A stretch of DNA of 64,000 nucleotides from Nemertoderma westbladi (GCA_032718475.1 JAUCBJ010007629.1:1-64000); one strand, 5' to 3'; positions 7,972-29,310 are shown, numbered from the stretch's first letter. The notes: generated by a model not told the origin, from the letters alone. Translations and numbers: made by a program.

Positions 7972-8075
7972 AAATTAAGAATAATTCACGTGGTTAATTT
8001 TGACAGGGTGTCAAAATTAAGAATAATTCATGCGGTTAATTTTGACAGGGTGTCAAAATTAAGGATAATTACGGT
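7970..8075 (+). repeat. 42-bp tandem repeat (about 2.5 copies) with palindrome TTAATTTTGACA-GGG-TGTCAAAATTAA, at the PBS position
   Basis: CAAAATTAAG at 7970, 8012 and 8054; no TGG-initiated tRNA complement directly after the LTR. Confidence 0.8.
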
Positions 8076-8264
8076 CAACTTCAACTGGTGGAAGTTGAGA
8101 ATCCTTCAATACTCTTCAAAAACTCTCTACGTGCTTGCCAGCACCCACTACGAGGAAACTCTGGTATTTGAGTTGAGACAAAGTCGTGGTTTAATTAAGC
8201 AACAAACTCGATCTAACCAACTCGTAGTCGGCAGATCACATATTTGGAGAGTTGTTAACAGGGA

Positions 8265-8456
8265 ATGGAAGTATCGATCACACCCATTGATATAATTCAA
8301 GTTGAGCCAGGAATCTGGCACGTCGAAGTTGAGGTACAAGGAACGAACGTTGGACGATTCAGGATTACTGTTCGGGTGGTCCAAGCTGAGTACAATACCT
8401 ACGAGGAACTGTTTTACGACATCGCGTATCTAGCCATCGACGAGGCGTTACAATGA
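8265..8456 (+). CDS. 63-aa upstream ORF overlapping the gag start through ATGA
   Basis: Stop TGA 8454-8456 overlaps gag ATG 8453-8455; protein-like beta-strand then helix pattern; no recognised homology. Confidence 0.4.
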   Translation: MEVSITPIDIIQVEPGIWHVEVEVQGTNVGRFRITVRVVQAEYNTYEELFYDIAYLAIDEALQ

Positions 8457-11400
8457 CAACAAATAACGTATCCGATACCGACGAGATGGATCACCACACA
8501 GACTCGGAAGCCGACGAGGTACCAAACGTCAAGAACATGACCCGTCGGTTAGGGGCTCTTAAAGGCGGAGTAACCCGAGCATATCAACGGATGGAGAAAC
8601 AACTCAAGGGAGTCAAAACCCCCCTCAATGAGGTACAAACTCAGCTTCAAAGTATCCGAAATATCCTACAGCGGTACGAAAGAATGATACAGGCGTACCA
8701 AGAGCTCATTCCCCCCACCGATCAGGAAAACTACCCCAAGTTGGAAGAACACGTTGTACATCTAGATGGGTTCCGCAAACAACACCGGAGGACCCTCAGC
8801 CTTGTGAGAGGCTATGAGGAACAGTATTACAAGAGGGCTGACGCGGAATCAGTACGATCCTCCAGCATCAGGACAGCAGTACATCGTAAGAGAACGGGGT
8901 CCGCTAGAAATCAGCACTCCAGCGCTAGGAGCGAGATATCCGGCTCGGCGCGCAGTTCTCAAGGGGCGCCGCCACTCCGAGACCAACTGCGAGAACGGAA
9001 GGCATTAGCCCTCAAAGCTCGGATGGAAGATGAGTATATTCAACTGCAAGCCGAGCAAGATGTATTAGCCGCCGAAACACAAAAGCGAGAGGCCGAACAA
9101 GCGGCCGAACGGCAGGCCGAACAACGCGAACAGGAGGCCGAACAACATAGACGAGAGGCCGAACGGCAGGCCGAACAACGTGAACAGGAGGCCGAACAAC
9201 ATAGACGAGAGGCCGAACGGCAGGCCGAACAACGTGAACGACAGGCCGAACAACATAGACGAGAGGCCGAACGGCAGGCCGAACAACATAGGCGAGAGGC
9301 CGAACAACAGGCCGAACAACGCAAACAGGAGGCCGAACAACATAGACGGGAGGACGAACGACAGGCCGAACAACGCAAACAGGAGGCCGAACAACGCGGA
9401 CGAGAGGCCGAACGAGAGATCGAACAACGTAAATGGGAAGCGGAAATGCGTAAACAACACGCCGAGGCCCAAGCAATTCTCATCCACAAAAAGAATGCGG
9501 ATATTGCAAAACTCGCAGAATACGAAGCCGCACTTATCGAACGAGATATTCAACTCTACGAGGACTGGGAAAGGGATATAGATCAGGAATATGAACCAAT
9601 TCCGGTACCGGAGTTAGAAAAGTCATTTACACCAACAGCGGCGAAACCTCCGAAACCCGAGATCCCGCCTACCAAACAGTCTACGCTATCGGCACAAGCT
9701 CCGGTGTTTCATCCCCCACCGGCTACGCTAAAGAATGAGGAACCCTATTTCCCATCCAATACCACGACAGCGAGTGTACCCAAGTACGAGCCTGAAAAGG
9801 ACTCGGAACGGGATGCCACTCCCCGATCAAACAACCCATTTACATCAACACCACAAACTCGCAGCCGCGTCATTATTAAAACTCCGCCTATTATTGATCC
9901 ATCAAGTATGGGAGTGAGTGCCAATAACTATAACCCTCCGAGTCACTCCAGTTCAGACGACGTCAGCATCATCCGGGCGTTGGAGAACCGCCTTGCCATG
10001 CCGAAGATGGAGATTCGCACCTTCGAAGGAGATCCCGTCGATTATCTCAGATTCAAGAAACGGTTTTTTGCGCAGATTGGATCAACGGACATAGCCGACG
10101 CACAGAAATTGGTATATTTATCGCAATACCTGGGTGACAAACCACGCAGAATTGTTGCATGTTTTGAAGGAGGTTCTCATGAGGCATACTATGACGCATG
10201 GAAAACTCTAGACAAAAGATACGGAAATACCGGAACTATAATTAATAAAACTCTAGAGAGACTGATACAGGACGCGGGATCACTAGGGGACCCACAGAAC
10301 ATACAGGAATTCTCCGACTCTATGAAAGATGCCTATTATACTCTGAAACCCTTAAATAAGGAGGACCAGGTGAACAACATTCTAAACCTCCGACAGATCG
10401 CCCGGAAGTTCCCCGGATGGCTGCAAAGTAAGTGGGCCTATAAATGCGTAGATCTCCGGCGCAGACATCCAGATCAAGATCCCAGCTTCCTCGAAATGTC
10501 GGCATTCCTGGACGATATCTCCGAAGCCATGAATGACTCAATGTTCTCGAAACAAAGTCTCGCCAAGTTGGACGCAATGGAGAGCAATTACCAGAGCAGG
10601 GCACCCACTCCAAACCCAAGATTCCGCCCTACTCCTGTGAGTGCGATGGTCATCAGTATGGCTGAGGACTCGGATGACGAGGATTACGAGGAACCGACCT
10701 TAGCAGAAGAATGGGCATGCTACCTAGCGAATTGGGCACCCGAAAGGGAAGGCACCACAGCCTCCCCTATATGTCTCTTCTGTGGGGAGAAACACAAAGT
10801 GGAATTCTGCAGAAAGTTTCAGTTCGCCGAACTCGTCCCATGCTTCGAGGCGATAATGAAACACCGAGGATGCTTCCGGTGTCTTGGAACAGGTCACTAT
10901 GTTCGGGAGTGCGACCAAAGATCATGCTGTGCTGTCTGTAACGACCAACGCCATCACACGCTCCTCCACATCCCCGCGAACTTCGATTTTACTACCCTCC
11001 CCTTTCGGATCGAAGCCAGGCGACGAGGAGAAACAAACCACGTCTTCAAAGGAACCCGGACAACCCAACGGAGAGAAACCAACCCGTTTAAAATCTACAC
11101 CGATACACCACAAGTAACCAATATTTCGGCCACGATTAATCTTATAAATCGCCGCTACATGGTCTTCGCAAAGGTGATCCCAGTAAGGATCCAAGGAGTC
11201 GGCAAATCTTTGACGACACTCGCGTTCCTCGATAACGGGTCCGACGGAACCATCATCGACCGGGATTTCCTCGAGCAACTCGGCCTAGAATATGAACCTT
11301 GTAAACGGCCCATACAAACCATCACCGATAACAAAGAAGTAGAGTCCGGGGAGGTGCAACTCCAGATGGAAGGAGTGATGAAGGGCTACGAAACGGCTAA

Positions 11401-11632
11401 GTTAACCATCAAGAACGCCTTGGTACACACAGACCTCCGGGTGCGGTTCCGACAATCAGCCGAGTACGCCCCCCTCATACAATTGGACCGAGACGATGTA
11501 GACCTGAGGTGTCCGCAGTTGGATGTGAACCGTATCACCCTACTGATCGGACTTGATACACCGGAACTACACATCCCCACCGGAGATATCGCTCGATCTA
11601 TAAACCAGGATGATGGATTTTATGCTGAATGA
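8453..11632 (+). CDS. gag: Bel/Pao Gag-protease part of the polyprotein
   Basis: PKMEIRTFEGDPVDY capsid region, triple Zn knuckle (CLFCGEKH, CFRCLGTGH, CAVCNDQRHHTLLH), aspartic protease LDNGS. Ends at an in-frame TGA inside the conserved A-x-x-T-x-x-GW motif (YAE*TIMGW). Confidence 0.93.
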   Translation: MTTNNVSDTDEMDHHTDSEADEVPNVKNMTRRLGALKGGVTRAYQRMEKQLKGVKTPLNEVQTQLQSIRNILQRYERMIQAYQELIPPTDQENYPKLEEHVVHLDGFRKQHRRTLSLVRGYEEQYYKRADAESVRSSSIRTAVHRKRTGSARNQHSSARSEISGSARSSQGAPPLRDQLRERKALALKARMEDEYIQLQAEQDVLAAETQKREAEQAAERQAEQREQEAEQHRREAERQAEQREQEAEQHRREAERQAEQRERQAEQHRREAERQAEQHRREAEQQAEQRKQEAEQHRREDERQAEQRKQEAEQRGREAEREIEQRKWEAEMRKQHAEAQAILIHKKNADIAKLAEYEAALIERDIQLYEDWERDIDQEYEPIPVPELEKSFTPTAAKPPKPEIPPTKQSTLSAQAPVFHPPPATLKNEEPYFPSNTTTASVPKYEPEKDSERDATPRSNNPFTSTPQTRSRVIIKTPPIIDPSSMGVSANNYNPPSHSSSDDVSIIRALENRLAMPKMEIRTFEGDPVDYLRFKKRFFAQIGSTDIADAQKLVYLSQYLGDKPRRIVACFEGGSHEAYYDAWKTLDKRYGNTGTIINKTLERLIQDAGSLGDPQNIQEFSDSMKDAYYTLKPLNKEDQVNNILNLRQIARKFPGWLQSKWAYKCVDLRRRHPDQDPSFLEMSAFLDDISEAMNDSMFSKQSLAKLDAMESNYQSRAPTPNPRFRPTPVSAMVISMAEDSDDEDYEEPTLAEEWACYLANWAPEREGTTASPICLFCGEKHKVEFCRKFQFAELVPCFEAIMKHRGCFRCLGTGHYVRECDQRSCCAVCNDQRHHTLLHIPANFDFTTLPFRIEARRRGETNHVFKGTRTTQRRETNPFKIYTDTPQVTNISATINLINRRYMVFAKVIPVRIQGVGKSLTTLAFLDNGSDGTIIDRDFLEQLGLEYEPCKRPIQTITDNKEVESGEVQLQMEGVMKGYETAKLTIKNALVHTDLRVRFRQSAEYAPLIQLDRDDVDLRCPQLDVNRITLLIGLDTPELHIPTGDIARSINQDDGFYAE
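9088..9440 (+). repeat. Coding tandem repeat (EAERQAEQ/EAEQHRR coiled coil) in Gag
   Basis: Many GAGGCCGAAC/CAGGCCGAAC units; explains the overlapping low-complexity ORFs. Confidence 0.9.
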
Positions 11633-11638
11633 ACAATA

Positions 11639-14600
11639 ATGGGATGGACACTCTGCGGCATTAAGGAGGAAACTACGGACACCTATACCTACCTTCCTAA
11701 ATGTCAGATTAAAGAGAATGTAACCTCTGTGGGTTATTGCTCAGCTTCGGATCTTGACGAGGATTTGTTCCTGGAAACCGAGAAAACCCAACGAGAGATG
11801 ACGAAATATTTTAATTTGGAGACCCAGGAGTTCGCGGAAAAGGACGAAAACCCATCCGAAGAGGACCAATATTGTATGGACGTTCTCGACCAGGCCACGT
11901 TTAAAGACGGACATTGGTGTTCACATGTTATGGAAGGACCCAAACAAACCAATGGCAAACAACGCCAGCATGGCACTTAGGCGACTTAAAGGGATTCTAC
12001 GCCGGCTGAATGACCAACCCGAGATAAAGGAGAAGTATAACACCGTAATCCAAGGATATCTCGATGATGGATTAGCAGAAATGGTACCACGGAACGAACT
12101 GCAAGGTGGTAAAAGAACATATTATCTCCCGACCCACTATGTAGTAGAAGCCCGCAAAGGCGGGAAAATCCGAGTGGTAAATGATGCTGCCGCTATGTAC
12201 CAGGGCGAATCCCTAAACAGTCAACTTTATACGGGACCCAACATATATAGCACACTCATCGGCGTATTGATCAGGTTCAGGGAAAACCGGGTAGCATTCA
12301 CCTGTGACATCAAGGCCATGTTTCATCAAGTTCGTACATTACCAAGAGACTCGGACTGTCTACGTATCCTATGGACGGATAAAACGCTTACTCAACAGGA
12401 GATTAGCCAACTCACGATAAAGGACGTAGACATAATGCGTATGGTCGTCAGGATCTTCGGCGCTAAGGACTCGCCGGTAGCATGCAGTGACATGCTAAAG
12501 AGGACGGCAACCATGTGCGAAAACGAGTTCCCTCCAACCGTCATAGAAACCATTCGACGATGCTTCTACGTGGACGACGGATGCGCCGGCGCGGATAATG
12601 TAGATGAGGCGTATCAGCTAGCAATGGGGATGGTAGAATGTCTAAAGAAAGGAGGGTTTCCACTCGTGAAGTTCAGATCCCACGACAAAACACTTATGGA
12701 AAAGTTTCCGGAGGACATCCGGCTGGAAAATAACAAGATGTATTCGGAGGATGTGGAACATCGTGTACTCGGGATTGAATGGGACATAGAATCAGATGAA
12801 TTCATCTTCAAATATAAACCCCTACCCAAGCCTATGACAAAAAGGGGATGTTTGTCGATAAAAAGTGCAATCTTCGACCCACTAAATTTCATATCTCCGG
12901 TAACCTTGGCCGGAATGAACCTGATTAAGGAAATGTGGATAGAAGGACTGGGATGGGACAAAGAGCTTCCCCCATACCTTAGCGTCAAATGGAGAAAATG
13001 GACGGAGCAGCTCGAACACCTACATCTTATGCGGATACCTAGACCGTTCTTCCTCGATAAACTGCCCACCGATATCTTCCAGCTCCACACCTTTTCGGAT
13101 GCTTCAAATACCGGAATCGGCGTAGTAACCTTCTTACGGAGACTAAGTAGCGATGGAAACGGCGATACAAGCTTCTTATTCTCCAAAGCAAAGACAGTAT
13201 CCGGGGAATTCGTAGCAACGATTCCGAGACTCGAGCTACAAGCTGCAGTTTGGGCAGTAAGACAGAATCGCATGGCCATGCGGAACCTACGGATCCCCAT
13301 AGAATCTCAACACTTCTGGGTAGATTCGAGTATAGTTCTCTATTATCTCCACTCTCCATCACGGCGTCACACCACGTTTGTTGCAAACCGAGCCACAGAG
13401 ATTAAACAGTGTACCGGCCGAGAACAGTGGCATCACGTGAACGGGAAGGAAAACCCAGCGGACTTATCAAGCCGAGGCGCCACCCCAAAACAACTCGGTA
13501 AAAGTAAACTCTGGTTTACAGGCCCGGAATTCCTACGGCAGCCACAGTTAACATGGAGTACCCGATTCGACCCCGAACTCGATAGTGGAAAATACTCCGA
13601 GGACGATAAAGAGATCCGTAAAATCCATCGAAGCAACGCGGTGGAAATTTATAGTTGCCTGACTGAGCCTGCAAAGGACTCGGGCAGGCACTATAACGTC
13701 GCGACGATCACTCAACTAGCGGCGTCTTTACATCGGTTGATCGAGCGAACTTCATCCATGAGACGGCTCGTCCACCACGTTATAACCCTTCGTAACTTCC
13801 TACGGTGGAAAAACAGCAAACCGATAGTTCAACGGAATATACAAGAACTTATTATCGCGGAGAAGTGTATTGTTAGATATGTCCAGAAAGAAAGTTTCCC
13901 CGATGAATGGGAACAACTTAGTGCGGGCAAAACATTGAAACCGGACAGCCCAGTCTACCAACTGAGACCAATGATAGGAGAGGACGGACTGATCCGACTG
14001 AATACCCGGATGGCAAACGCCCCGGTCGAATATGAGGTTAAATACCCGGCGCTTCTGCCCGGAACGTCGACACTAGCTAAGCTATTAATTCTACAATGTC
14101 ACGAGGACAACCACCACGCAGGACAGAATTGGATTATAGCTAATATAAGACAAAGATATTGGATCACCCACATCCAGCCACTGATCCGGAAAGTGTTGAA
14201 ACGTTGCTTCACCTGCAGACGTTACCTAGCGCCACCAATCACCCAAAAGATGGCCGACTTACCAGCCACCCGTCTACAAGCGGATTCCCAACCATTCTAC
14301 GTCACCGGAGTGGACTGTTTCGGACCGTTCACGGTTATTGAACGACGATCCAACATCAAATGCTGGGGAGCCATCTTCACCTGCCTAAGGTCTAGGGCAA
14401 TTTACTTAGATATCGTGGTAAATCTGACACAACACGCATTCATCAAAGCTCTGCGTCGGTTCGTGGCGAACAACGGGACATGCTGCCACATGTATTCCGA
14501 TAATGGTACAAACTTTGTGGGAGGAGAAAGAGAACTTAGAGAGGCGATCGAAGGATGGTTTACCGATAACACTGCATCCCAAGCCTGGAAGGAACACCAG

Positions 14601-15272
14601 ATACAGTGGCACTTCCAGACCCCCTTAGCACCCCATACGAGCGGGGTATGGGAGAAACTGATCGACCTAGTGAAACGATCCATGCGCGTCGCTCTAGGCG
14701 ATACCCGGGTAACCCATGACACCCTCCGCACAACATTCTGCGAGATCACGGCTACCCTGAACAACCGACCCATTGTTCCTATCCGCGACGACCCCACAGA
14801 CCTGGAACCCCTCACTCCTAACCACTTACTGGGGAGACCTAAAACCCACCTCCTCCCGGAAACCATGTTCCCGGATCCCAACGAGATCGCGAAACATACA
14901 AACTGGAAAAAGGCCCAAGCGTTAGCAGCGCATTGGTGGAGAATTTGGACCCAGGAGTACCTCATAACCCTCCGGACCAGGAGGAAATGGAACAACACCT
15001 ACCGGAATGTCGCAGTTGGTGACATGGTACTAGTTAAAGAAGATCTCAAAGACCGCATTCACTGGCCTGTGGCGCGGGTCGTGACCATACACCCAAGCAA
15101 AGACGGACTTGCAAGGACTGTGACGATACGAACGGCAAAGGGCCACTACCAACGCCCTATCCAGAGGCTGTGCCTTCTCGAAGGCAATGATAGCGGTGAC
15201 TCTACGAGAGGTGATAAGATCCCTACTCAAGATCCTGCTGTGGACATTGGTGACAATTACAAACCCGTGTAA
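11639..15272 (+). CDS. pol: Bel/Pao Pol (RT, RNase H, integrase), frameshifted near 11920
   Basis: RT DIKAMFHQ and FYVDD; RNase H FSDAS, IPRLEL, NPADLSSRG; integrase H..HH..CFTC, GVDCFGP, SDNGTNF, WEKL. ORF 11639-11980 is in the gag frame, ORF 11925-15272 in a shifted frame. Confidence 0.93.
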
Positions 15273-15552
15273 CCCTTCTCATCATGTTGACAAACTCTTT
15301 TTAAACTGTGATTTATCGACAACGAATTATGGACCCCCTTTAAACCAACTGTAACCACGCAATGGTATTTGTGTTTCCTCGTGTGTTATGTGGAGTCCAG
15401 CGTCACCCTGCGGATGTTTCGACTGACGCAGGGTCGTTTATGTATTGTTTACCCTGATTTTGGTCATTGGGACCAACGATATTGGATTATTTAGAAATGG
15501 AAAAGATTTGAAGTGGAATTCATTGTATTCATTGCAGTATGTTATGTTGTCC

Positions 15553-15962
15553 GTTGCGTGCGCAGTTCGGGGCGTAGGCGGTGTAACGAGTCCAGCTGTA
15601 GATCCCGGATTGCCGCGCAACACCCCCTCTATCCCGTTATTCTGGTGGGTCCATGGTGCATCCACATGACTTCGACGATAGAGGGTTTTATGTTCTCAGT
15701 CGCGTTATTCTGTTGGGACCGTTGCGTGGATTTTGGGGCGTAGGCGGTGTAACGAGTCCAGCTGTAGATCCCAGAATGTTGCGTAACCCCATCCCACATG
15801 ACTTCGTCGACTGAGCTTTATGTTGTTGGGAGTGTTATTCTGGTGGGTCCCTGGTGCATCCACGTGACTTCACTCCCAGCGTCTTCATTGTCCGTTACGT
15901 GCGCAGTTTGGGGCGTAGGCGGTGTAACGAGTCCAGCTGTAGATCCCAGATTGCCGCGTAAC
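15553..15962 (+). ncRNA. Three ~68-nt structured repeats downstream of pol with an invariant 38-nt core
   Basis: GGGGCGTAGGCGGTGTAACGAGTCCAGCTGTAGATCCC inside copies 15553-15621, 15721-15787, 15894-15962; flanking stems covary. Confidence 0.6.
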
Positions 15963-16521
15963 ACCCCTTCCACGACAAAGATTAACCAAAGAAAATGATT
16001 GAATATAGTTGGAAACGATGAAAAGGATCAGACAACTCTACTATAAACCTGAATGATGACGCGTATACTGATGAAAATGTAATGATGCGCACCTTGGTGC
16101 TGCGCTTATAACAAATGATGATAGCCGGGGGGCTATAAACCCAATGATGATGTGGAAATAAATAAATAAATGTGAAATAAATGGTGGAACTAAATGTTGA
16201 AATATATGTGGAAATAAATGAAATGAGATGAAATAATAATGAAATGAAAAAAGACAAAAAAAAGGTATAAAAGAGGTCAAAGAAAAGAATTGGAAAAAAA
16301 AGGACAAAAAAGTCATAAAAAACTGGTTGGATATTATGTATAGCTATAGTAACTGTAAATGCTGAATGTATTAGCAATAAGATGATAGATGCCTATATAG
16401 CAATGTTATTTAATAAACTGAATTAAATAAAAAAAACTGAATTATTCTGCTATCGCTATAGTTTCAGACTTTCTGGACTTATAATTAACTGAACTAATTT
16501 GTAACGGATATAATCGTAAAT

Positions 16522-17847
16522 ATGGACCTAAATCGCCAAATTATCGGCGAATTACGTAACACGTTAGATCTACTGGAATATTCGCAACCCGGATCCCCTG
16601 ACTTTGATACAAATTGGAGCACCCTGCTAAATGAGAACGTGCGAGTCATGAAATTCACCGGGCGAGAGGGACCGGATTCTAAGAATCTACGAGCCCTCCG
16701 GTTAGCCGATGCTAGTACGAGACTGAAAAGAACTCGGAACGCAAAGGCAACCGGAGGGGACGATTCGTCGTTTTGGGAAACGTTCCGGCAGAGCGTCTAC
16801 AGATCCCGATGTTTGATCTACGACAACGAGGGAAACGCGACGCCCACATCGAAAGCGATTACGTTGGCGAGATGTCAAAGTTTCGTCGACGACAAGAGTA
16901 CGTACCTCGCCCACTGGGGAAACCTGTCGGAGTGTACGGCGACGCTTCGAGAGGAACGCATATCGATTATCCAGAACCGCGATGACTACCAGGAAAAGTA
17001 CGGGGCGAAAGAATATGGTCGATCCTTAGTCGTCGTCCTCGGAACCCTGGACGGTTTGGTACTGGTGTGCCGAATATTCCCGACACCCAGACAGGAAGTG
17101 CAGGCAGCCGGAGCGATCTGGTTGCTGCCTCCGGAAATCCAAAAGATCCTCTTCGACTTCGACGTCATTAAAATCGGGTCGGATATCAAGGCGGACGTCC
17201 GGAACGACTACGCGAACGCTCCTACAGGAAGAAACCGACGAGACGACCTCAACGCCCTTAGCCATTGCATCGACACTCAAACGTTACTAGCCTGGTTACG
17301 ATTCGCCGAGTTCATGCGAGGATTCCAAGAGGTGAGACCGACGAAATCCGGGATCGGCTACCTCGCTGTGCTAAACGGCGGTATCGACTTCAAACCCCAG
17401 AAATTCCGGGACTATAATAAAATATACGGTGGATACCCGGGATTGGAAATAAAGAGCGAGCGAGAGGGTCGATGGAAGGACGTTGATCGGAAGTGGACGA
17501 TACACCAAAGATGGGAGAATCCCGATCGACGGAACTATGTTTACGTCGTTATGGAATGCTACACCGTCGCTAAGTTTATCTGTAAAACTCTCGATAACCT
17601 TATTACGGCGGTCCCCCTTTCCTTCGTCGACTACGACTGGAACGAGGTTATAAACCACACGTTTAAAGCGGTCGAGAACATTACACCGGGAGAATCGAAA
17701 ACACCCGCCGTTATCGATTCCTGGGACGAGAGCGGACCTTACGACATCCCTACGATTACCGAACTTCTCGGTGCGGAGGAGCCTCTGATCTCTTCGGAAG
17801 GGGAAGAGACGAGGGTGTTCTACTCTCCACCCCGAAGCGACAACTAG
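16522..17847 (+). CDS. Accessory protein N-terminal part: DEDDy/DnaQ-like 3'-5' exonuclease-like domain (WRN/EXD/Mut-7 type)
   Basis: ExoI-like LIYDNEG; VLGTLDGLVLVCRI; LPPEIQKILFDFDVIKIGSDIKAD (ExoII-like); CIDTQTL; SGIGYL; YVVMEC (ExoIII-like with E). Motif recognition only. Confidence 0.65.
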   Translation: MDLNRQIIGELRNTLDLLEYSQPGSPDFDTNWSTLLNENVRVMKFTGREGPDSKNLRALRLADASTRLKRTRNAKATGGDDSSFWETFRQSVYRSRCLIYDNEGNATPTSKAITLARCQSFVDDKSTYLAHWGNLSECTATLREERISIIQNRDDYQEKYGAKEYGRSLVVVLGTLDGLVLVCRIFPTPRQEVQAAGAIWLLPPEIQKILFDFDVIKIGSDIKADVRNDYANAPTGRNRRDDLNALSHCIDTQTLLAWLRFAEFMRGFQEVRPTKSGIGYLAVLNGGIDFKPQKFRDYNKIYGGYPGLEIKSEREGRWKDVDRKWTIHQRWENPDRRNYVYVVMECYTVAKFICKTLDNLITAVPLSFVDYDWNEVINHTFKAVENITPGESKTPAVIDSWDESGPYDIPTITELLGAEEPLISSEGEETRVFYSPPRSDN

Positions 17848-17900
17848 AGCCGGAGGCCGCGTATGGACCGGCCGCCAAACGGGTTGCCTCGACCGAACCG

Positions 17901-19112
17901 ATGAAGAGAGCAGGCGTTTACACTCCACGCGGCTCCGGTAGCCCCGCGAGGGAGGTGGCTACTACAGCTGCATTGAGCGACTTCGGCGACATATGCCAAC
18001 GGTTATCCCCGTATCCTTTCCCGGGTGGCGAAGATTGGTCGTCGGAGATTCCGAGTACCAGCCACCAACGGACCCGCGCAGCGATACTGATCGAGGAGGG
18101 CCCCAGCGACGCGCCGACCCCCGACGATCTCCTCGGTATCCCTCCGTCGAAAACCCCGGCACCCCTTCGCCGACCAGCGGTGGCTACTGCACCCGCCGTT
18201 CCTCAGGACCCTATGCGACTAACCCGTTGGTACGCCGAGCAAACTGAATGGATCCACCGCCAGAAACGGTCATCCGAGTTGAGACCAGCGGGACACAAAG
18301 AGGGTTATCGGAGCGAGAACATACTACGCAAAAGCCTAGCATTCCGCGGGCTACCGACCACCGAGAATATTCCGAAGAGCGACCGATGACTCGAATACTA
18401 CGTCGGCGTCCCGATTCCAATATTCCCCGGTCGAGAAACGCAGTTGGAGGTATGCGACGACTGCGGCTCGGAGCAGTGCCCACGCGGCAGAAGGAATCGG
18501 GTTACCGATTCTTGCCTCCAGCTCCTCGGGGTACTCTATTGCCCATACTGCGCGATATCGGGCCACGACGTTTCGGTCTGTCCGATCCTTTATAACCTAT
18601 GCACCACGTGCGGTTTCCGTGGACATTCCGCTAGCCCCCGCTGCTATATCAAATGTCCTACCAAAGACGTAACCGCTATGGGCAATATGGTCATGTTTGA
18701 GACATACACAAACAGCCACTTAAAGACCAAGTTTCGGAGAAACGCTCGGAATATCGCGCAGGAGATGGCGTGCGGATATTTCTCCTTCCCGGAACGCCTC
18801 CACACGTCGGCCACGCTACCTTTCCATTACGTGGATCTGCTACTGAGCGCTGGATTATTCGGCCCATTCGAAGTCATTAGACGATTATACTCGTATAAAG
18901 AGGAGTTCGGTGACGGAGAATGGTTCCTAGAGGCACGCAACTCCGAGTTGGAAAGACGAACCGACATGATCCCGATGCCTTCGAAAGGAAGAGCCGCCAG
19001 GAGACAAGCCGAAGCGTTACTCACAATGGATTTTGACGCTCCTCTACCAGCCATAGCGATCGATGAGAGTCGACGGGCGAAGAGACGAAAGGCGTACCAG
19101 AAAAAGAAATAG
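17901..19112 (+). pseudogene. Accessory protein C-terminal part: Pro-rich linker and tandem CCHC Zn knuckles, in-frame TGA at 18387-18389
   Basis: 17901-18389 and 18444-19112 share a frame; GRETQLEVCDDCG..C, CPYCAISGH..VCPILYNLCTTCGFRGH..C; colinear homolog in element C. Confidence 0.7.
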
Positions 19113-19277
19113 TGGATTGGGATATTCCAGGAACATTTATCGAACATTTATTTTTATACAAACTCTAGGCCAAATTAATTAAAAACTATGCAATATTAAA
19201 TTTGGGTTTTTTATATTGGGAATGACCTACGCAAACTCAATCGACCGACAGACTTCACGAAGGTCATTGGGGGGGAC

Positions 19278-20906
19278 TGTTCGCGGTATTTCAACTTTCC
19301 ATAACGCGAGTTGAATATTTTTGTATTTATTTAAAATTGATTATTCCGATATTACTACTGGGTGCGGGACCATGGGTTTTGGGCACATTCAATAAACTGG
19401 GGGCGATTTATGGGCGAACTTTGGGGCAACTTACAGGGTACGGGAATAATTTCATAGTTATAAGGGCCAGGGGGGATGGAAAATGCAAGCAGTATTCAGG
19501 TTAGCCTGAGTACTATTAGGCCCTGGCCAACTTCCTGCTGCCTGTAGGGGTGGATTTGGTAATGCGCCAGGCCTAAAGGACAAGGACTGCCCTTAGCGGT
19601 CCCTGGCCAACAGCAGCCATTACGAGACTGAAAAGAACTCGGACCGCTGACTGCTTGTGTCAGGGATTTGCGACGGGCACCGACGGCCCCTTAGTAGCCA
19701 AGCCGTTCTGGTTCTCGATGATCGAACCCCGGGGTTCGTGAGGGGTGGAGCGGACACGCGAACGGGTGGCCAACTAACGACTGCCCCCTGACCTAAGCCG
19801 TACTGGTTCTCGATGACCGATCCCTTCGGGGTTCGTGAGGGGTGGGACGGACATGCGAAAGGGCTGGCCACAGGACGGGTTTGACGAGAACTGCCCTTAG
19901 CGGTCTCTGGTCAACGGCAGCTACTACGAGACTGAAAAGAACTCGGAACGCTGACTGCTTGTACTGGGATTTGCGACGGGAACCGACGACAGACCCCTTA
20001 GCCAAGCCGTACTGGTTCTCGATGATCGAACCCTTCGGGGTTCGTGAGGGGTGGAAAGGACACGCGATGGGGTCGAAAGACAAAGGACTAGACTCGACTA
20101 GACTCTACTGGCCTACCGACTGTTCGGAGCAGTTTCTCGGCTGCCGAAGCGACTACGAGCCTGAAACGGACTCGGAAAGCCTAGGTGGTTGGGTTTCTGT
20201 GATGAACCGCCGGACCCCTAGCCAAGCCGTTCTGGTTCTCGATGATCGAACCCTTCGGGGTTCGTGAGGGGTGGAACGGACACGCGAACGGGTCCACCGA
20301 CACGACAGACTCCTAGCCAAGCCGTACTGGTTCTCGATGACCGAACCCTTCGGGGTTCGAGAGGGGTGGTACGGATACGCGACAGAGTCTACCGACTGGA
20401 CCGACCCTTAGCCAAGCCGTGCTGGTTCTCGATGATCGTTCCCTTCGGGGTTCGTGAGGGGTGGAACGGACACGCGACAGGGTCGACCGACACCGACACT
20501 ACGGCACTAAGACTGGGACCGAGGGAAAATCTGGGGAACATTAGGTAGGCTAAAATTCTGAGCGAACAGTGGGTTATTAAATAATATACCGTAGGGATTT
20601 ATATTATCGTGTATAATTATTGTGAATATTTGGTGTATATTGATTTGGGGAAGCCCAAAATTATTCTTAATCAGGTTTCAATGATGTTGAACAGGTTTCA
20701 ATGACGTTGAACAGGTTTCAACTATAGGAAGTTACATTAAAGAGTATATCCAACTAATGCAGCTTTTTATCAACCGCAAACTTGCATCTCAGAAAATATT
20801 CCCTCCCCACAATCAATATCCGGTGACTGGCCGGGGCTCGGTGGTCTGTTAAAGTCACGTCTCCAGCATCGGCGTTTTCCCCCCTGGTGTAGGGATAACG
20901 GCAACA
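19278..20906 (+). repeat. 3' LTR of element A (hairpin array at about 19685-20485)
   Basis: Direct repeat of 6343-7971, preceded by G-run PPT and followed by TSD CAGGC. Confidence 0.97.
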
Positions 20907-23556
20907 CAGGCCTACTATTTATAAATCGTTTGAGTTGATTTATAATATATATATACCCGTTTAAAATGGGTTTTGTCAATATTTGAAATAAATGTTATTA
21001 TTTCTGGGGGGAGTCACTACACAGAAGCTGTGCGCTCTCAGTGAAGTGCTACTTATTGGACACTAAAACAGATAATTCTAATTTACCTAAGTTACTTAAT
21101 ACTACAAATTACGTACGATACGGGTGAGATTAATTCTCTAATTAAAACACAACAAAATATTACGTACGAAATTTTAGGGTAATTTTACAGGAAGTCTACA
21201 AACCAGCCTAACAAAGGGTTAGAATTCTGGTTATTACAACGGACAGGGTACTACGGTATTTGAAAATAATAAGTAGTAGTAAATATGTTGCGCTGTCCAG
21301 ATAGGAAAAATACCACCGTCTGACGACCTATAGCCGTATCGCTATAGGTACTACGTTATGTATCACAGAGTGTTCCTACCTGGAAGTTAATTACCGCGGA
21401 CTACCAGATCCAACGTGCCTATTAACCACTTTACAACACAATACACTGCCTACACACTAATTACTTTTGGAAAGCACTGTACACCAAACCCTAAATTAGG
21501 TACAAGTACTTATTAAAAACAGATAACTAGCAGTTAAATATACTTGAACAGTTAAAAGAACCACGGCATCTGCTGGAGTGACCGGAGCACAAAGTTACCA
21601 GTCTTTACCTACGCCAAGCAGCCCGTGTAGTACCGGGGTTAATTTAACTATAACGGTATGTGTAACAAGCACAATTACTGTAGGAATAAACTTGGGGACA
21701 TGAATGTTGCGAATAATCGCATAAACTCTGAATAATAAATATTACGCTACCCGTACAGAATACTCAAACAAAATACAAACCAAACGCTGGCAGACTACCA
21801 TCAAGCCTAAATAAACTACAGTATGTGCAGATTCCGAAATGGTTAGTTAGTATGCGTTCTAACACAGTAGTACGACTTATTCTTTAGGAGGGGGTTGACC
21901 TTACAACTCAAGATGCCCCAACTTACTAACTGGCACTTTATCGGACAGACTCTACACACGCCGCAATCTCTCCAGACCCAACAACAGCCAGACAACAATC
22001 CAGCCTACAATTATCTGAACAATCTGAGCAGACTTACACGTCTTCTGCTCAATATTAACTTACATGTAAATAAAACCGACAGAAATAAGTAAAATCTCAA
22101 TAAAAAACCAGGGCGGCCGTTCCCTGATTAAGTACTAAGACCTACCGGTGTACAATAATCAAAATCGAATAATACTAATGTACTTATACTGGAAGTACCG
22201 GTTAGGACAGTTGGGCCTACAGACCTACACCAGTACCGATTCTGGCAGTTGGGCCTACGGACCTACAGCAGTACCGGTTCAGGTTTACCGGTCGACCGGT
22301 ACTTTCAACTTTATTGCTTACTGCAATAAAGAAGATAACTGTTATTGTACGCGCTTTTGAAGAGCTTTAGCAGTTTAACCTGCCAAAATTTATATGTCTT
22401 TTGGTTTATAAATAGACTTTAACATATGACAAGTATTTAATACCAATAAACACAACATTAGCCGAAGCCAGCCTAGTGCGCGTCCATTCACCCGCTGGAT
22501 ATACCCGGGAGACTGGATTCGGAGGGCTTAGATTTTATTGCAGTATAACCTTACTGTATTATTCGATTGATCGTTAATAAATAATTTCTGACTAATATTA
22601 TTCACTTTCGGGAAATATTAACAGTTCCTTTAGGACGTGGCGCTCTATCTAGGTAAACAGAGAAATGACTTATACTAAACACAACGGTAAGACGGTAAGG
22701 CTTATGATTCACGTATGAGGCGCATTCTTTAGGAAATGCTTAGTTATCAGCCACAATCATGCACACTACCGGTACCGCACAATACTGCACACTAATCTGC
22801 CGACCGTCAATGAATTTTATCATACATAAAGAGAACAGCAATTGACTCATGTAGTGCCTATCAAATAGCATTAAATTCACTACAAACCACGATAATATAA
22901 GTCGCAATCGCTATATGTAACCTGTCTCTCTAACCTGTAGTGTATCAAGAAAATTGGGAAATTTGGGTTATTTATTGATGTTCTCCAAGTAATAATATTC
23001 AACCAACTGATACAAATAATGACAACAGTAAATAGCATTAAGACGGTAGGTTAAGATATGATATGTGTAACACTGATAATGCAGCACTGATACGCTGATT
23101 GAACTGGACTGATAACAGTTATACGTTCTATAATCTAAGCCTACTAATGTTTCTTCTAAAGTCTGAAAACAATTGACTCCAGAGCCGGTGTTCTTGGCCT
23201 AGAAGCAACAACACAACAGTAACAAGAAAACTATAAGACTGAACACGCCTAGTACCATGTAGAATGTCTCCACGTCTAAGGTAAAAATCGCTCTGATTGG
23301 CTGTTAAGCTGAACAAAGAACCATGTGTCCAACGGCCGTTTCCATGCCAGCAACCAGCTGTTGGATGTTGTAATCTGAATCATCAAGGCTACACTGTGCT
23401 AGAGGATTTGACGCATTGCGGGTTTTGTGTCTTGCCATGTCCGCCAAAGCACACATATAGAAAAACAACTTTTATGTCCGTTAAAACACCCACACGGTAC
23501 TTTGCGGGCAAGGGGACTGATTATATCCGCAAAAGCTTTTACAATAATAATAATAA

Positions 23557-24237
23557 ATGGCTGACTTTAATTCAGGTCCATATAATTTAAACTTTCAAAT
23601 GGGAACGATTATGATAATTTCTGGCCCATCTGGTTCTGGAAAATCAACGTTTGTGGGGAATTTAATTAAACACAAGAATGGTTGTTTCAACGAAGCCCCC
23701 ATGCGAGTATTGTATTGTTACGGGAGCAATCCCCCGACTATTCCCGGTATTACTCACCTTTACAAAGGTTTGCCAGAAAATATAGATAGTTTAGTGAATA
23801 GTCGAGATTTATTAATTATAGATGATTTATTAACAGAAACTGAGTCCAGTACAGCTTTAACTGTATTGTTTACTAAGGTAGCTCATCATTCCAATATATT
23901 TATTTGTTTTATAACGCAAAACATGTTTTACGGTGGGAAGCATAACCGCACAAGATCAATTAATAGCCATCCCTTAGTAATAATGAAAAATCCGCGAGAC
24001 AGTCTATCGGTTTTAAATTTCGCGAAGCAGATGTTACCAGGGCAGACCAAATTTTTAGTAGATTCCTATCAAGATGCGACAATTGAACCATTTTCGCATT
24101 TCTTAATTGATTTACGACAGGAAACACCCGAACATTTAAGATTTAGATCGGATATATTTCGTAATCATAATTGTTACATTAAAAATTACATTGACTATAA
24201 ACGTAGCGAAAATAATAATAATAATAATGATAAATAA
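23557..24237 (+). CDS. A32/FtsK-like DNA packaging ATPase
   Basis: Walker A GPSGSGKST, Walker B LLIIDDL, HHSN..ITQN, KNPRD. Confidence 0.92.
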   Translation: MADFNSGPYNLNFQMGTIMIISGPSGSGKSTFVGNLIKHKNGCFNEAPMRVLYCYGSNPPTIPGITHLYKGLPENIDSLVNSRDLLIIDDLLTETESSTALTVLFTKVAHHSNIFICFITQNMFYGGKHNRTRSINSHPLVIMKNPRDSLSVLNFAKQMLPGQTKFLVDSYQDATIEPFSHFLIDLRQETPEHLRFRSDIFRNHNCYIKNYIDYKRSENNNNNNDK

Positions 24238-24274
24238 TTAATATTTTGTAACAATTTTCAATAATGTTGCAACA

Positions 24275-24658
24275 ATGAATAGACTTGTGCAGAAATATCG
24301 TAATGAACTGGAATTTCTACGCCGCGCTACCCCTCAACAAAGAACTTATTTTATTAACCATACCGCGAGTAACGAATTAATACGGCTCATTGTAAATACT
24401 GCATTAAATGTTCTAAAAGGTAACGTACAATTGACCCCTCATCCATTTAGAAATATTCGCCGCTATAAGAAGGTATTGAAATCACTCAACCGTAAAACAA
24501 AAAATATATCAAGTTACAGAAAAAAGTTAAGCAATCAATCTGGAGGCATACTACCGTTTCTAATACCCTTACTCGGCATTGGCGCGAAACTCGCCACGAG
24601 TGATGGTGCCGCCCCCGCTGGAGCAGCTATTGCGAAAAAAATTAACCGTGGACGGTAA
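24275..24658 (+). CDS. Basic Polinton hypothetical protein
   Basis: LNVLKGN..L and NQSGGILPFLIPLL resemble the small ORFs seen next to the ATPase in Mavericks. Confidence 0.65.
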   Translation: MNRLVQKYRNELEFLRRATPQQRTYFINHTASNELIRLIVNTALNVLKGNVQLTPHPFRNIRRYKKVLKSLNRKTKNISSYRKKLSNQSGGILPFLIPLLGIGAKLATSDGAAPAGAAIAKKINRGR

Positions 24659-24882
24659 TAATGGTTAAAACAGGAGTAACATTTAGAAAATTATATTTAG
24701 TATCGAGTAAACCGTTAGCTACTGATTTAAAACCTCAAGATATACCTAGAGTAAATACTACAAAAAGAAAACCCTTCAAAACATCAACTTCAAAGAAAAT
24801 AATTAAAAAATTTCAGTTGTTCTTACGGTGATGCCCTTTATAAGAGATTTGAATATACATATTACTTGCGGTTGTCGAAAAG

Positions 24883-25206
24883 ATGCCACGCAAGATGAAA
24901 CCGATTTTAAACCGAAGCTTAGACAAAAAACTGTTAAGAATTTATTTAGATCCTTCATCCCCTGCGGGATTTGCAAGTGTTGCAAAATTAGCAAAAGCTG
25001 CAAACATCAAACCAGCACAAGCCCAGAAATGGTTGAGCGGGCAAAAGACATACACCCTTCACGCTCCACGTAGACATCATTATCCAACATCTAAAATATT
25101 TACGGGAGGCTTAAAAGATATATATATGATAGATCTAGTGGATATGCAGCAATATAAATCGCAAAATAATAATTATAACTATATATTAACATGTATTGAT
25201 GCCTAA
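24883..25206 (+). pseudogene. Polinton retroviral-like integrase, N-terminal fragment only
   Basis: Y.DP..PAGF, WLSGQKTYTLH, MIDLVDM...YILTCID then stop; the remaining catalytic D and E are absent. Confidence 0.85.
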
Positions 25207-25259
25207 ATTAATTAATTTTAGCGGAGGTCGCACTGTTATAACACTTAAGTTAATACGCG

Positions 25260-26114
25260 GTGGGGATGATGGATGAATTCTACGTTAGACTACCGAGTAA
25301 CTCCTGTCCAGTTGATTTTCCACGTAATTCTGCTAGTAGTTATCAGATCAATTTCCATGGCGCCTTACCTATAAACCCAAACGAAAACTGGGTGGTAGGT
25401 ATAAAAAGTATATTTTACTTAGCAACGTTGCCGTCAATGTATAACAATGTAGAGAATGTTATTTTATTAAAAAAAGGGAAAAAAAATTTTGAGGATACAC
25501 TTCCATCCGGTTTGTTCTACAGTATCAATGACATTATAGATTATTTTAAAACGGGGGCGTTGAAAGATAAATTACAAATAGTTGAAATTACTCAGCAAAA
25601 TAGGTTGCAATTTATTTTAGGGAAAGCGGTGCGAGAGTTATTTATAGGTCAACAATTAGCCTATTATTTTGGAATTACTGAAAATAATCTCGGCGCGAAT
25701 TTAAATCCAAATTTTAAAATTATTTTGAAGACGAAAAATAATATAAAGGGTTATTTAATAAAGGTTATCGGAAATGGAGAAAAAGCTTACCAGATGGTAT
25801 TTTTATGCCCTCAACCACCCAATTCTATTCCAGAACCTAAGTCGAACATGTACGTGACTACTAATATAATTGAAAATCAATATATTAATGATTTTGGTTT
25901 AGCTGTACTTCGTCGTGTTGCGATACCTGATGACGTGAAATATGGTAGCGTAATAAATAAAGAATTTGTCAAGGATACAATTCATTATATCCCTGTAAAA
26001 AAATCATATAAGATAACATACATTCATATTGAAATAACAGACAAAGAAGGAAAAGATTTGAATTTTGAATACGGGACAACATCTATTACATTACACTTTA
26101 AAAGAATAAATTAA
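25260..26114 (+). CDS. Minor capsid protein (penton-like)
   Basis: FYVRLPSNS...FPRNSASSY, WVVGI, C-terminal I.I.ITD..G..L.FE.G...TLHF. Confidence 0.85.
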   Translation: MGMMDEFYVRLPSNSCPVDFPRNSASSYQINFHGALPINPNENWVVGIKSIFYLATLPSMYNNVENVILLKKGKKNFEDTLPSGLFYSINDIIDYFKTGALKDKLQIVEITQQNRLQFILGKAVRELFIGQQLAYYFGITENNLGANLNPNFKIILKTKNNIKGYLIKVIGNGEKAYQMVFLCPQPPNSIPEPKSNMYVTTNIIENQYINDFGLAVLRRVAIPDDVKYGSVINKEFVKDTIHYIPVKKSYKITYIHIEITDKEGKDLNFEYGTTSITLHFKRIN

Positions 26115-26115
26115 A

Positions 26116-26627
26116 ATGGATTCTGATTTATTTCAAAGATACAGTAAACCTCAATATGGTGGTGCAGACTCTAATCTTGCTGTTTTTAAAGGTGGTAGAA
26201 GTACGAGAGGCTCGACGCAAGTTCCTGTTTTTCGAGGTGGTTCATATATTGACCCTTACTGTCAACAAATTGGTGCATTTGGTCCAAACTTAAAACAACG
26301 TCGTTTTCAACGTTATCGTAGAGGATTTGAAAAAATTTGGTAAGCCATTAGCTAAAAAAGTGTTACAAAAAGCTTTACCATTTACCACAAAATTTATGAG
26401 ACAACACGTAATACCAAAAGGTAAGCGGTCTTACATCAGCAGGCTAATACGGTTATTAATAAAGCATTAAATAAAATGAAACCATCAACCAGATCTGTTG
26501 TAGAAAAAGTTTATAGAGATTTAAAGCGACCTACTAGACCAATGTCTATGAACATACATCATCGTCGTAGTAAAAATAGAAAAATAAAAAAAGGCAAACT
26601 GAAACACTGCGAAAAAAGTATTATTTA
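26116..26627 (+). pseudogene. Basic core-protein-like ORF with GG motifs, interrupted
   Basis: QYGG, FKGG, FRGG resemble adenain cleavage sites; Lys/Arg-rich sequence continues past the stop at 26343. Confidence 0.45.
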
Positions 26628-26630
26628 ATA

Positions 26631-27896: not shown

Positions 27897-27898
27897 GT

Positions 27899-28351: not shown

Positions 28352-28382
28352 TTAATCATTTAACTTTTGTTTATCAGATAAA

Positions 28383-28979: not shown

Positions 28980-29310
28980 GTTTACTGTAAGCTTGTAATG
29001 TGATGGGATATAATATAATTTTATTTTGGTGATGATCTTGATGTTAATATAAAAATATAATAAAATATAATTTTTTACAACAAGTTCTCTAAAAAAGAGT
29101 CAATTGCGCTAGGTTAACCATACACATTTAACAATATGACGTAGATGTAACATGTACAGTAAGTATTCTCGCGTTATACATCGCAAACTAATAACACATA
29201 CAGTAGTTGACTAGTAATATTAGTCAGAAATGCAACATAAACTGTATAGGATGTAGTGTTAACCTGTTGGTAGCGGTACTGATAAATTCAATAATTTATT
29301 ATAGGCCTAA

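Follow-up and report, generated by a model that had tools for sequence, protein, structure and literature searches.

A predicted RNase D-like exonuclease and zinc knuckle protein encoded between pol and the 3′ long terminal repeat of a BEL/Pao retrotransposon from Nemertoderma westbladi

Introduction

What kind of protein does a BEL/Pao retrotransposon encode in the place where env would stand? The question is raised by a 64,000-nucleotide stretch of DNA from Nemertoderma westbladi (GCA_032718475.1 JAUCBJ010007629.1:1-64000), referred to here in its whole length as the window. In it a long terminal repeat (LTR) retrotransposon, element A, carries a set of open reading frames (ORFs), together called ORF3, at 16522-19112, between pol and the 3′ LTR and ending 165 bp upstream of the latter. 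A sequence-only reading had proposed that ORF3 specifies an accessory DEDDy-exonuclease-like and CCHC protein in the env position, conserved in a second, diverged copy, C, elsewhere in the window. The analysis described below indicates that ORF3 probably encodes one protein of about 860 residues, in which a DEDDy-like exonuclease domain of the RNase D/WRN type is joined by a linker to three CCHC knuckles and a C-terminal module. The likely ligand of this protein is the single-stranded RNA or complementary DNA (cDNA) of the element, whose 3′ ends it would hold or trim.

Results

Two copies in the window and three metagenomic proteins form one family

ORF3 of A comprises three ORFs (16498-17847, 17667-18389 and 18390-19112), with an ATG at 16522 and a stop codon at 19110-19112. 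Its parts are the following; E values for domains come from the hidden Markov model (HMM) and alignments described in this and later sections.

16522-17808, plus strand: part 1 of ORF3 in frame 1, a poorly constrained N-terminus and then the exonuclease-like domain, read in a 449-codon open frame.
16936-17670, plus strand: DEDDy-like exonuclease domain of A, of RNase D/WRN type (E 2e-26 in the HMM search, with an envelope of ORF residues 147-391).
17800-17847, plus strand: change from frame 1 to frame 0 (drop in depth before 17811; insertion or deletion at 17808 in run X2; loose ends in runs X1 and X4).
17809-18386, plus strand: linker in frame 0, rich in proline, alanine and acidic residues, with an excess of synonymous variants.
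18387-18389, plus strand: in-frame TGA between linker and knuckles, 13 codons ahead of a GRET motif (context TGA CTC).
18453-18644, plus strand: three zinc knuckles, CDDCGSEQC... (atypical), CPYCAISGHDVSVC and CTTCGFRGHSASPRC (profile matches, and alignment with C and the metagenomic protein P0001).
18696-18842, plus strand: conserved C-terminal module of about 50 residues, FE.[WY]...G[FY]F.[FI]...LPF.Y (three-way alignment, BLASTP 4e-13).

When the 449-residue ORF of A was compared by phmmer with 1.84 billion representative proteins, three matches were obtained: P0001 (E 2.3e-6), P0002 (4e-4) and P0003 (4.3e-4). A cluster look-up identified all three as ENA singletons, encoded on contigs of 9449, 2676 and 2199 bp respectively. 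An HMM was built from P0001-P0003 only, with no sequence from the window, and used to scan the 301 six-frame ORFs of at least 60 residues that the window contains. The two ORFs recovered were those of A (2e-26) and C (8.5e-12), and no other ORF scored better than 0.35. Like ORF3, P0001 (648 residues) contains the exonuclease-like domain, the three knuckles and the C-terminal module, and a five-way alignment of A, C and P0001-P0003 contains 11 invariant columns. By these sequence comparisons ORF3 belongs to a protein family of two-part architecture, represented by A, C and the three metagenomic proteins. Word-indexed homologue searches gave no match to the A part or to residues 400-700 of C, and the family alignment returned only P0001. 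A pattern derived from the knuckle alignment matched 167 times in metagenome contigs, among which tblastn revealed no relative; the exonuclease alignment contained no part conserved strongly enough for a pattern of this kind.

The sequence-only reading had aligned A and C colinearly on the strength of three motif pairs. All three pairs are present in the sequence (LPPEIQKILFDFDVIKIGSDIKAD in A and LPKAVQVLVREKLTTKVGSAIRDD in C, GRETQLEVCDDCG and GRETLVLGCDYCG, and CPILYNLCTTCGFRGH and CPRLHNRCSKCNFRGH, in the same order), and the C-terminal halves of the two proteins align well (BLASTP 4e-13, 35/122 identical; tblastn 3e-12). The N-terminal halves are not significantly similar when compared pairwise. 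Their best BLASTP E value is 0.55, and the best Smith-Waterman alignment between them, which is the LPPEIQ.../LPKAVQ... motif, has a score of 35 that was reached by 118 of 300 shuffled sequences. The colinear alignment thus holds for the C-terminal halves, while the N-terminal halves are linked only via the family profile. The sequence-only reading had named a failure of the two proteins to align as grounds for abandoning it and, taken alone, the pairwise result for the N-terminal halves is such a failure.

The lack of pairwise similarity in this half would fit a different explanation, that ORF3 was captured by chance or is a foreign insertion nested in the element, in either case without a role there, and that the resemblance of A to C is incidental. 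Two further observations point the same way: both window copies are broken, and ORF3 is missing from element B, the LTR of which is similar to that of C. Against this stands the profile of the relatives, which joins A and C, together with the two-part architecture that P0001 shares with them. Variation among the copies of the family, considered below, bears on the same issue.

The N-terminal domain is remotely homologous to PF01612 exonucleases

The relationship of the N-terminal half to known nucleases was analysed by profile-profile comparison. The PF01612 template was an alignment of 30 domain sequences from 30 bacterial genomes, obtained by a family search; a further 80 RNase D loci from genome contigs, at least 73% identical, were left out of the profile. 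Aligned with this template by hhalign, the ORF3 family gave a probability of 91.3% and an E value of 1.2e-7 over 168 columns (query 1-215, template 1-169), and in local mode 90.2% and 1.6e-6. Reversing the template reduced the probability to 0.2% (E 0.3) and reversing the query to 0.1% (E 0.54), and none of 20 column-shuffled templates exceeded 0.7% (best E 0.078). The three metagenomic proteins alone gave 90.2% and E 1.5e-6. In an earlier comparison of the family with the single RNase D sequence of E. coli, now superseded by the 30-sequence template, the probability was 11.6% (E 0.0026) and only ExoII and DTQ were aligned.

Comparison with sequences of known structure gave a similar picture. 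A profile of the five family members ranked EXD2 first among PDB sequences (E 0.011-0.02) and Egalitarian second (0.098-0.13), and these alignments span ExoI, the LP...KVG...D block of ExoII, and DTQ. Run singly against the PDB with phmmer, A and C found chance-level matches only (DJ-1 at 0.16 and uL18 at 0.062). In the ESM Atlas, PF01612 clusters made up 23 of the 30 neighbours of A (score 0.90) and 26 of the 30 neighbours of residues 1-250 of C (top score 0.92, 176 shared features).

Several results limit the assignment of the domain to this family. Pfam found no match to the A and C parts at E 0.1 or better, and P0001 scored 11.9 bits against DNA_pol_A_exo1 (E 0.2), below the cut-off of 23.6. 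In hhalign comparisons with PF01612, A alone (E 0.1) and C alone (0.067) were not significant, and A plus C gave 0.0095; as these fail where the relatives succeed, the window copies are joined to PF01612 only through the family. AlphaFold models, for which only five sequences could be aligned, were poor, with a mean predicted local distance difference test score (pLDDT) of 37.5 for the A domain and 47.6 for that of P0001. When the weak P0001 model was submitted to Foldseek there was no match at E 1e-3 or better. Ranks 1-17 of that search were nonetheless all DEDD nucleases, with EXD2 at the top (0.016-0.16), followed by RNase D, the apicoplast polymerase exonuclease, NrnC and REXO2. The structural check yielded only weak matches, and the DnaQ-like fold is deduced from the sequence profiles.

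If the profile matches reflected short convergent motifs, the N-terminal domain would not have a DnaQ-like exonuclease fold at all. The hhalign alignment, however, covers 168 of the 169 template columns and contains all the motifs in order, and all 22 controls fail; the PDB profile search, the ESM Atlas neighbours and, from a weak model, Foldseek ranks 1-17 agree with it. We therefore consider a different fold very improbable. As judged from its profile, the N-terminal domain of the family is a remote homologue of the PF01612 exonucleases, in line with the DEDDy-like domain originally proposed.

The ExoI motif is retained in the relatives and altered in element A

The motifs that align between the family and PF01612 are, in order, ExoI (D-x-E), ExoII (K-[IVL]-G-x5-D), DTQ and ExoIII (Y-x3-[DE]). 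ExoII reads IKIGSDIKAD in A (17167-17196) and KVGSAIRDD in C, and both align with the K-x-[FL]-H-x4-D block of RNase D-type enzymes; the aspartate is present in four of the five family sequences, P0002 being without it. A has IDTQ at 17269-17280, and its ExoIII is the Y-x3-E contained in NYVYVVMEC (17533-17559). The ExoIII tyrosine is invariant in all five sequences, and the residue four positions beyond it is glutamate in A, C, P0001 and P0002 and aspartate in P0003.

ExoI is D-x-E in the three relatives (SIDVE, TVDVE and SFDTE). The sequence-only reading had A keeping an ExoI-like D-x-E, namely YDNEG at 16819-16833. This assignment has to be given up, as YDNEG lies about 50 residues upstream of the D-x-E position of the relatives, in a stretch that has no counterpart in them. 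The homologous position in A reads D-Y-Q (16984-16992) in the HMM alignment, or I-Q-N if the MAFFT alignments are read without gaps. Among the family copies described below there are synonymous variants in two codons at this position, Q151 and D154, and other copies thus encode the same residues there as A. In C the ExoI position has been lost at an adapter junction. The state of ExoI in A tells against an active enzyme, and exonuclease activity of A is, on this sequence evidence, doubtful. The YDNEG region itself contains three synonymous variants, at codons 109-119, and is thus constrained coding sequence; YDNEG may have some role, though not as the homologous ExoI motif.

These findings raise the possibility that the exonuclease-like domain, in the A lineage at least, has no catalytic activity and serves as an RNA-binding or adaptor module (compare Egalitarian, EXD1 and Maelstrom), for example in localising or packaging the RNA of the element. 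The PF01612-type domains of Egalitarian and EXD1 only bind. Such a module would account for a domain that has D-Y-Q or I-Q-N in place of D-x-E and yet is under purifying selection, and Egalitarian is the second-best match in the PDB. Three conserved hairpins just upstream of ORF3 would be possible ligands, although this link is a guess. Inactive DEDD derivatives are described as binding RNA in a study of rotifer retrotransposons (Rodriguez, Kenefick and Arkhipova 2017, PMC5408684). On the other side, P0001-P0003 keep the acidic positions and the tyrosine (P0002 lacking the ExoII aspartate), so that the ancestral protein was probably active, and A itself retains the ExoII aspartate, the ExoIII Y-x3-E and acidic residues beside the ExoI position (D-D-Y-Q-E). 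A dead domain is possible, though on balance we think it unlikely as an account of ORF3. For the A lineage in particular, once the identity of the domain is accepted, catalysis and binding alone appear about equally probable; with a glutamine at the position of the ExoI glutamate, the domain there may only bind.

Three zinc knuckles and a conserved module follow the linker

The second half of the protein proved to be as proposed, in that its three knuckles match retroviral nucleocapsid chains. A profile of the knuckles matched HIV-1 nucleocapsid in the PDB at 3.7e-4, the Trypanosoma brucei protein TbRND at 0.0065 and Lin28 at 0.018. Knuckles 2 and 3 of both A and C fit C-x2-C-x4-H-x4-C; the first knuckle of A is atypical, and that of C contains a stop codon. 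Pfam matches to the knuckles were below the cut-off (zf-CCHC_4 at 0.05). An alignment of A, C and P0001 contains 29 invariant columns across the knuckles and the C-terminal module, and the module has no Pfam family and gave no match. As to the traits of an envelope glycoprotein, such as a signal peptide, a transmembrane anchor or homology to fusion proteins, Pfam revealed no env family in ORF3 and no long hydrophobic segment was seen by eye, no dedicated predictor having been run.

Nucleocapsid knuckles bind single-stranded RNA or cDNA, and PF01612 exonuclease domains act on 3′ ends. By analogy, the knuckles would tether the ORF3 protein to the nucleic acid of the element, as those of nucleocapsid do, and the exonuclease domain would engage 3′ ends. 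Trimming is the more plausible in those relatives that keep D-x-E, the ExoII aspartate and Y-x3-[DE].

ORF3 is under purifying selection and is probably a single gene, broken in element A

Contigs from three DNA runs that carry the label of the host species, each from a different study, were compared with the region for depth and for variants. The family of A is very abundant in the host, and in all three runs the contigs add up to a similar depth across the end of pol, the spacer, ORF3 and the LTR. This similar depth, and the presence of a second lineage, C, in which the gene also lies beside an LTR, indicate that ORF3 is a trait of the family and not of a single copy.

Variants in 16522-17808 and 18390-19112 were counted among the best-supported 40 of 205; in the linker (17812-18386) all 27 variants with a share of at least 25% were counted. 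Between 16816 and 17808, 11 of 13 variants are synonymous in frame 1, compared with none and two of 13 in the other frames. In the linker 20 of 27 are synonymous in frame 0, compared with five and three in the others. Randomised base changes in the same two stretches would be expected to give 3.4 and 8.3 synonymous variants, and none of 20000 randomisations reached 11 or 20. The exonuclease part and the linker are therefore protein-coding, and purifying selection has acted on them during the diversification of the family, as had been supposed from the conservation of A and C at low identity. The first 98 codons (16522-16815) contain three of the variants counted, all non-synonymous, which decides nothing. 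The limitation of the counts outside the linker to the best-supported variants weighs against the reading given here; in the knuckle part four variants were counted, two of them synonymous, and nothing is decided.

The strong synonymous excess, and the similar summed depth of pol, spacer and ORF3 in the three runs, are further arguments against chance capture. The gene moreover ends about 155-165 bp before the LTR in both A and C, and we give the idea of a captured gene without function next to no credence.

The phase of the synonymous variants also reveals how the frames of ORF3 belong together: it follows frame 1 up to about 17808 and frame 0 beyond. The difference in length between A and other copies at this point is not divisible by three, which makes the frame change at about 17808 a defect of the A copy. 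As the switch in variant phase and the difference in copy length coincide at about 17808, the proposal that the three ORFs of A derive from one gene of about 860 codons is supported. The TAG at 17845-17847 was considered as the end of a gene and rejected, being out of frame past about 17808; a common variant there is synonymous in frame 0.

Within the continuous frame that follows, the TGA at 18387-18389 showed no variant with a share of at least 25% in the three DNA runs, a weak result as it lies 43 nt from the end of the stretch compared. It is likely that this TGA is common to the family. If it is fixed in the lineage, translation of the knuckle half as part of one protein needs read-through, which counts against a single 860-residue product. 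In the A copy ORF3 is disrupted twice, by the frame change and by the in-frame TGA.

Upstream of the ATG is a possible signal for splicing:

16462-16467, plus strand: TTTCAG, a candidate splice acceptor, read from the sequence.

Run X6, guessed to be RNA and bearing another organism label, yielded a few contigs of low depth, matching at 95-99%. One of them is unspliced across 16362-16751, and the run gives nothing firm on expression or splicing.

A further possibility is that ORF3 is a means of counter-defence. Its knuckles would bind Piwi-interacting or small interfering RNAs of the host, or the precursors of these, for trimming or destruction by the exonuclease, and the element would be spared from silencing. 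The PF01612-type fold family includes the small-RNA trimmers Mut-7 and Nibbler, so that such a role could be argued by analogy only; the very high copy number of the family in the host would be in keeping with it, and a possible role in post-transcriptional silencing is mentioned for the rotifer proteins (PMC5408684). ORF3 has no particular similarity to Mut-7 or Nibbler over other PF01612 members, its top matches being EXD2, Egalitarian and RNase D, and the change of ExoI in A speaks against catalysis. Counter-defence is accordingly improbable in our estimation, and a protein that handles the nucleic acid of the element itself is preferred.

Copy C is truncated by an adapter chimera

Copy C lies on the minus strand and retains the following parts.

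55137-55652, minus strand: exonuclease-like domain of C (HMM of the relatives, E 8.5e-12, ORF residues 452-623); the N-terminus with the ExoI position is lost.
54038-54208, minus strand: three CCHC knuckles of C, the first interrupted by a TAA at 54176-54178.
53489-54004, minus strand: conserved C-terminal module and tail of C, with the stop codon at 53489-53491.
52545-53333, minus strand: LTR-like sequence following C; it is related to the element B LTR.
55666-55717, no strand: perfect 26+26 palindrome of a polymerase chain reaction (PCR) adapter, consisting of two back-to-back copies of AAGCAGTGGTATCAACGCAGAGTACT (two exact matches, none expected).

A genome announcement gives the 26-mer AAGCAGTGGTATCAACGCAGAGTACT as an adapter contaminant that was removed from an amplified PacBio HiFi library (PMC12613986), and its first 23 letters occur in 1147 papers in a text search. 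The back-to-back adapter copies at 55666-55717 show the contig to be chimeric at 55691/55692. The start of C at 55665 and the context upstream of it are therefore an assembly artefact, C having been cut just after ExoI. C also contains a frameshift within 54456-54667, upstream of the knuckles, which disrupts it in addition to the TAA and the assembly artefact.

An 849-codon ORF at 54456-57005 on the minus strand was considered as a real fusion of an endonuclease and the exonuclease. It was rejected, its two halves being joined by the adapter palindrome; the other half is an APE-type Exo_endo_phos fragment resembling that of a long interspersed nuclear element (Pfam, 5.5e-7).

Comparison of the C-side LTR with that of element B by blastn gave three matches: 51899-52156 with 52950-52699 (77%), 51511-51565 with 53333-53281 (84%), and 42541-42678 with 52677-52545 (69%). 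The C LTR is inverted relative to the B LTR (inverted repeats I1, I3 and I4). The C gene ends about 155 bp before its LTR, compared with 165 bp in A, and because this LTR is related to that of B we take C to be the 3′ end of a B-like element in which the gene is placed, relative to the LTR, as it is in A. The env position proposed for ORF3 thus holds for A, where the gene lies between pol and the 3′ LTR, and in C can be demonstrated only relative to the downstream LTR.

Element B (42393-52216) is a degraded BEL/Pao element. Its 5′ LTR is truncated, its pol contains many stop codons, and its integrase has an internal deletion. What is left of Integrase_H2C2 and DUF5641 can be recognised, 68-nt tandem repeats are found at 50981-51314, and no ORF3 was found in the element. 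Its 3′ LTR abuts the LTR of C tail to tail, across a poly-G/C run near 52185-52215.

Element A is a recently inserted BEL/Pao retrotransposon

The window consists of AT-rich host DNA (about 32-35% G+C) interspersed with repeats that are richer in G+C. The features of the element that carries ORF3 are listed below.

6343-20906, plus strand: element A, a BEL/Pao LTR retrotransposon.
6343-7971, plus strand: 5′ LTR of A, TGT...ACA (ends and flanks read directly).
8390-11632, plus strand: gag-protease ORF of A (Pfam DUF1759 3.9e-15, Asp_protease_2 2.7e-5, zf-CCHC 0.0092).
11802-15272, plus strand: pol ORF of A with reverse transcriptase, RNase H and integrase (Pfam Peptidase_A17 1.9e-37, Integrase_H2C2 1.3e-8, DUF5641 1.2e-28).
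15547-15970, plus strand: three copies of a hairpin of about 70 nt in the spacer between pol and ORF3 (direct repeat family D10; RNAalifold).
19266-19276, plus strand: purine-rich tract read directly before the 3′ LTR, a probable polypurine tract.
19278-20906, plus strand: 3′ LTR of A, TGT...ACA (blastn repeat pair).

In the blastn comparison the LTRs of A (6342-7971 and 19277-20906) are 99.755% identical over 1630 bp, with four mismatches, and the element is flanked by a 5-bp target-site duplication, CAGGC, at 6338-6342 and 20907-20911. With its LTRs and target-site duplication, a DUF1759 gag, and a pol that includes the Pao peptidase (A17), reverse transcriptase, RNase H, integrase and DUF5641, A is a BEL/Pao LTR retrotransposon, and a young one that was recently inserted.

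The spacer between pol and ORF3 is 1.25 kb long and contains the three hairpin-forming repeats and then an A-rich tract that extends to about 16470. RNAalifold predicts 25 consensus pairs for the hairpins, three of them with a compensatory change, and the z-scores of the individual copies are -3.4, -1.5 and -3.8. The hairpins may be a cis-acting RNA element. Searches of Rfam at gathering thresholds and with ARAGORN gave no match anywhere in the window.

A 32-nt motif at 16711-16742, within the weakly constrained 5′ portion of ORF3, has three further occurrences in each LTR (97%, 96% and 82% identity), at 6985-7016, 6686-6712 and 7208-7245 and at the counterparts of these positions in the 3′ LTR. 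At the junction of gag and pol (11630-11980) there is an in-frame stop codon at 11630-11632, and pol begins in a different frame at 11802. Within gag, 9046-9519 is a long imperfect 21/33-nt repeat that encodes a charged, coiled-coil-like tract of the REAE(Q/R)QAEQ(R/H) type.

Elsewhere in the window, a further BEL/Pao-type gag (DUF1759, 1.1e-13), part of a third element, lies just upstream of A at 2521-5874 on the minus strand. Several long ORFs without a Pfam family are found in the AT-rich DNA of 23557-36424 and 37608-39611, examples being 31777-34803 (minus strand, 1008 codons), 26580-27896 (plus strand, 438 codons) and 37608-39611 (minus strand, 667 codons), the last of which has internal 21/42-nt repeats at 38127-38335.

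Discussion

An exonuclease gene in this position has precedents. RNase D-like DEDDy ORF3s have been described in the LTR retrotransposons Juno and Vesta and in the Athena/Terminon elements of bdelloid rotifers (Rodriguez, Kenefick and Arkhipova 2017, PMC5408684), where they are presented as independent acquisitions of unknown function, a statement repeated in a review (PMC5718144). The rotifer genes are like the one described here in that an RNase D-like DEDDy gene stands downstream of pol, in the place of env, in unrelated element lineages (PMC5408684). They differ from it in several respects. The rotifer carriers are of the Juno and Vesta clades, whereas element A is a BEL/Pao element. The rotifer proteins are said to have 'strong homology' and a DEED signature (PMC5408684), whereas the present family is too diverged for Pfam and its relatives have D,E in ExoI, D in ExoII and Y-x3-E in ExoIII. 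The altered ExoI of A is a further difference. As whole words, neither 'CCHC' nor 'zinc' occurs in the text of the rotifer paper, which does report a Cys-His-Cys motif in Vesta2 and Vesta5 (PMC5408684); here there are three CCHC knuckles and a conserved module. For the rotifer ORF3s no significant departure from neutrality is stated in that paper, in contrast to the strong synonymous excess found here.

A parallel in domain order is TbRND of Trypanosoma brucei (PDB 7C42, among others), in which a 3′-5′ Exo domain is followed by tandem CCHC fingers, a combination that its authors call very unusual (PMC7797062). As described there, TbRND, a cellular enzyme of mitochondria, trims guide RNAs, and it has four fingers and a short linker (PMC7797062). 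The ORF3 protein differs from it in having a linker of about 200 residues and an additional C-terminal module. TbRND was matched weakly by the exonuclease profile (E 1.4-1.9) as well as by that of the knuckles (0.0065), and these weak matches do not imply common descent of the fusion.

In the order of its motifs, ExoI, ExoII, DTQ and ExoIII with its tyrosine, the family resembles EXD2, Egalitarian, the WRN exonuclease and RNase D, all of PF01612. It departs from cellular PF01612 proteins in that A and C are below the Pfam threshold, in the glutamate that replaces the ExoIII aspartate in four of five sequences, and in the altered ExoI of A. Knuckles 2 and 3 have the C-x2-C-x4-H-x4-C spacing of Gag nucleocapsid, but they are situated in ORF3, and the gag of A has knuckles of its own.

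In the open literature we found no report of a DEDDy-plus-CCHC ORF3 in BEL/Pao elements, subscription journals and Repbase reports being outside the scope of this search. An exonuclease ORF3 in this position is already known from rotifers, and the present case differs in its BEL/Pao carrier, its strong divergence, the fusion to three knuckles and a tail module, the change at ExoI and the clear purifying selection.

Two traps for annotation emerge from this locus. The family escapes Pfam, and its members would be read as 'hypothetical' or be mistaken for env; and an untrimmed adapter chimera creates a false fusion ORF of 849 codons.

The occurrence of a diverged exonuclease-knuckle ORF3 in two BEL/Pao lineages widens the range of known carriers. 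The active-looking and altered forms offer a natural comparison, and the protein is a tractable one for the study of 3′-end processing, RNA handling or counter-defence. We can also offer a broader speculation, to which only a small chance should be given: animal BEL/Pao elements might carry a dedicated end-processing protein, an RNase D-like exonuclease joined to nucleocapsid-type knuckles, which would be packaged to trim or proofread the 3′ ends of cDNA and RNA, or be turned on host small RNAs. One hugely successful lineage, by losing the ExoI glutamate, would then have switched from cutting to binding, and the TGA would be a site of programmed read-through that sets the ratio of exonuclease-only to exonuclease-knuckle protein. 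Gag and pol are generally regarded as all that most LTR retrotransposons require, and a selected third gene in a family of high copy number suggests an element that brings its own helper.

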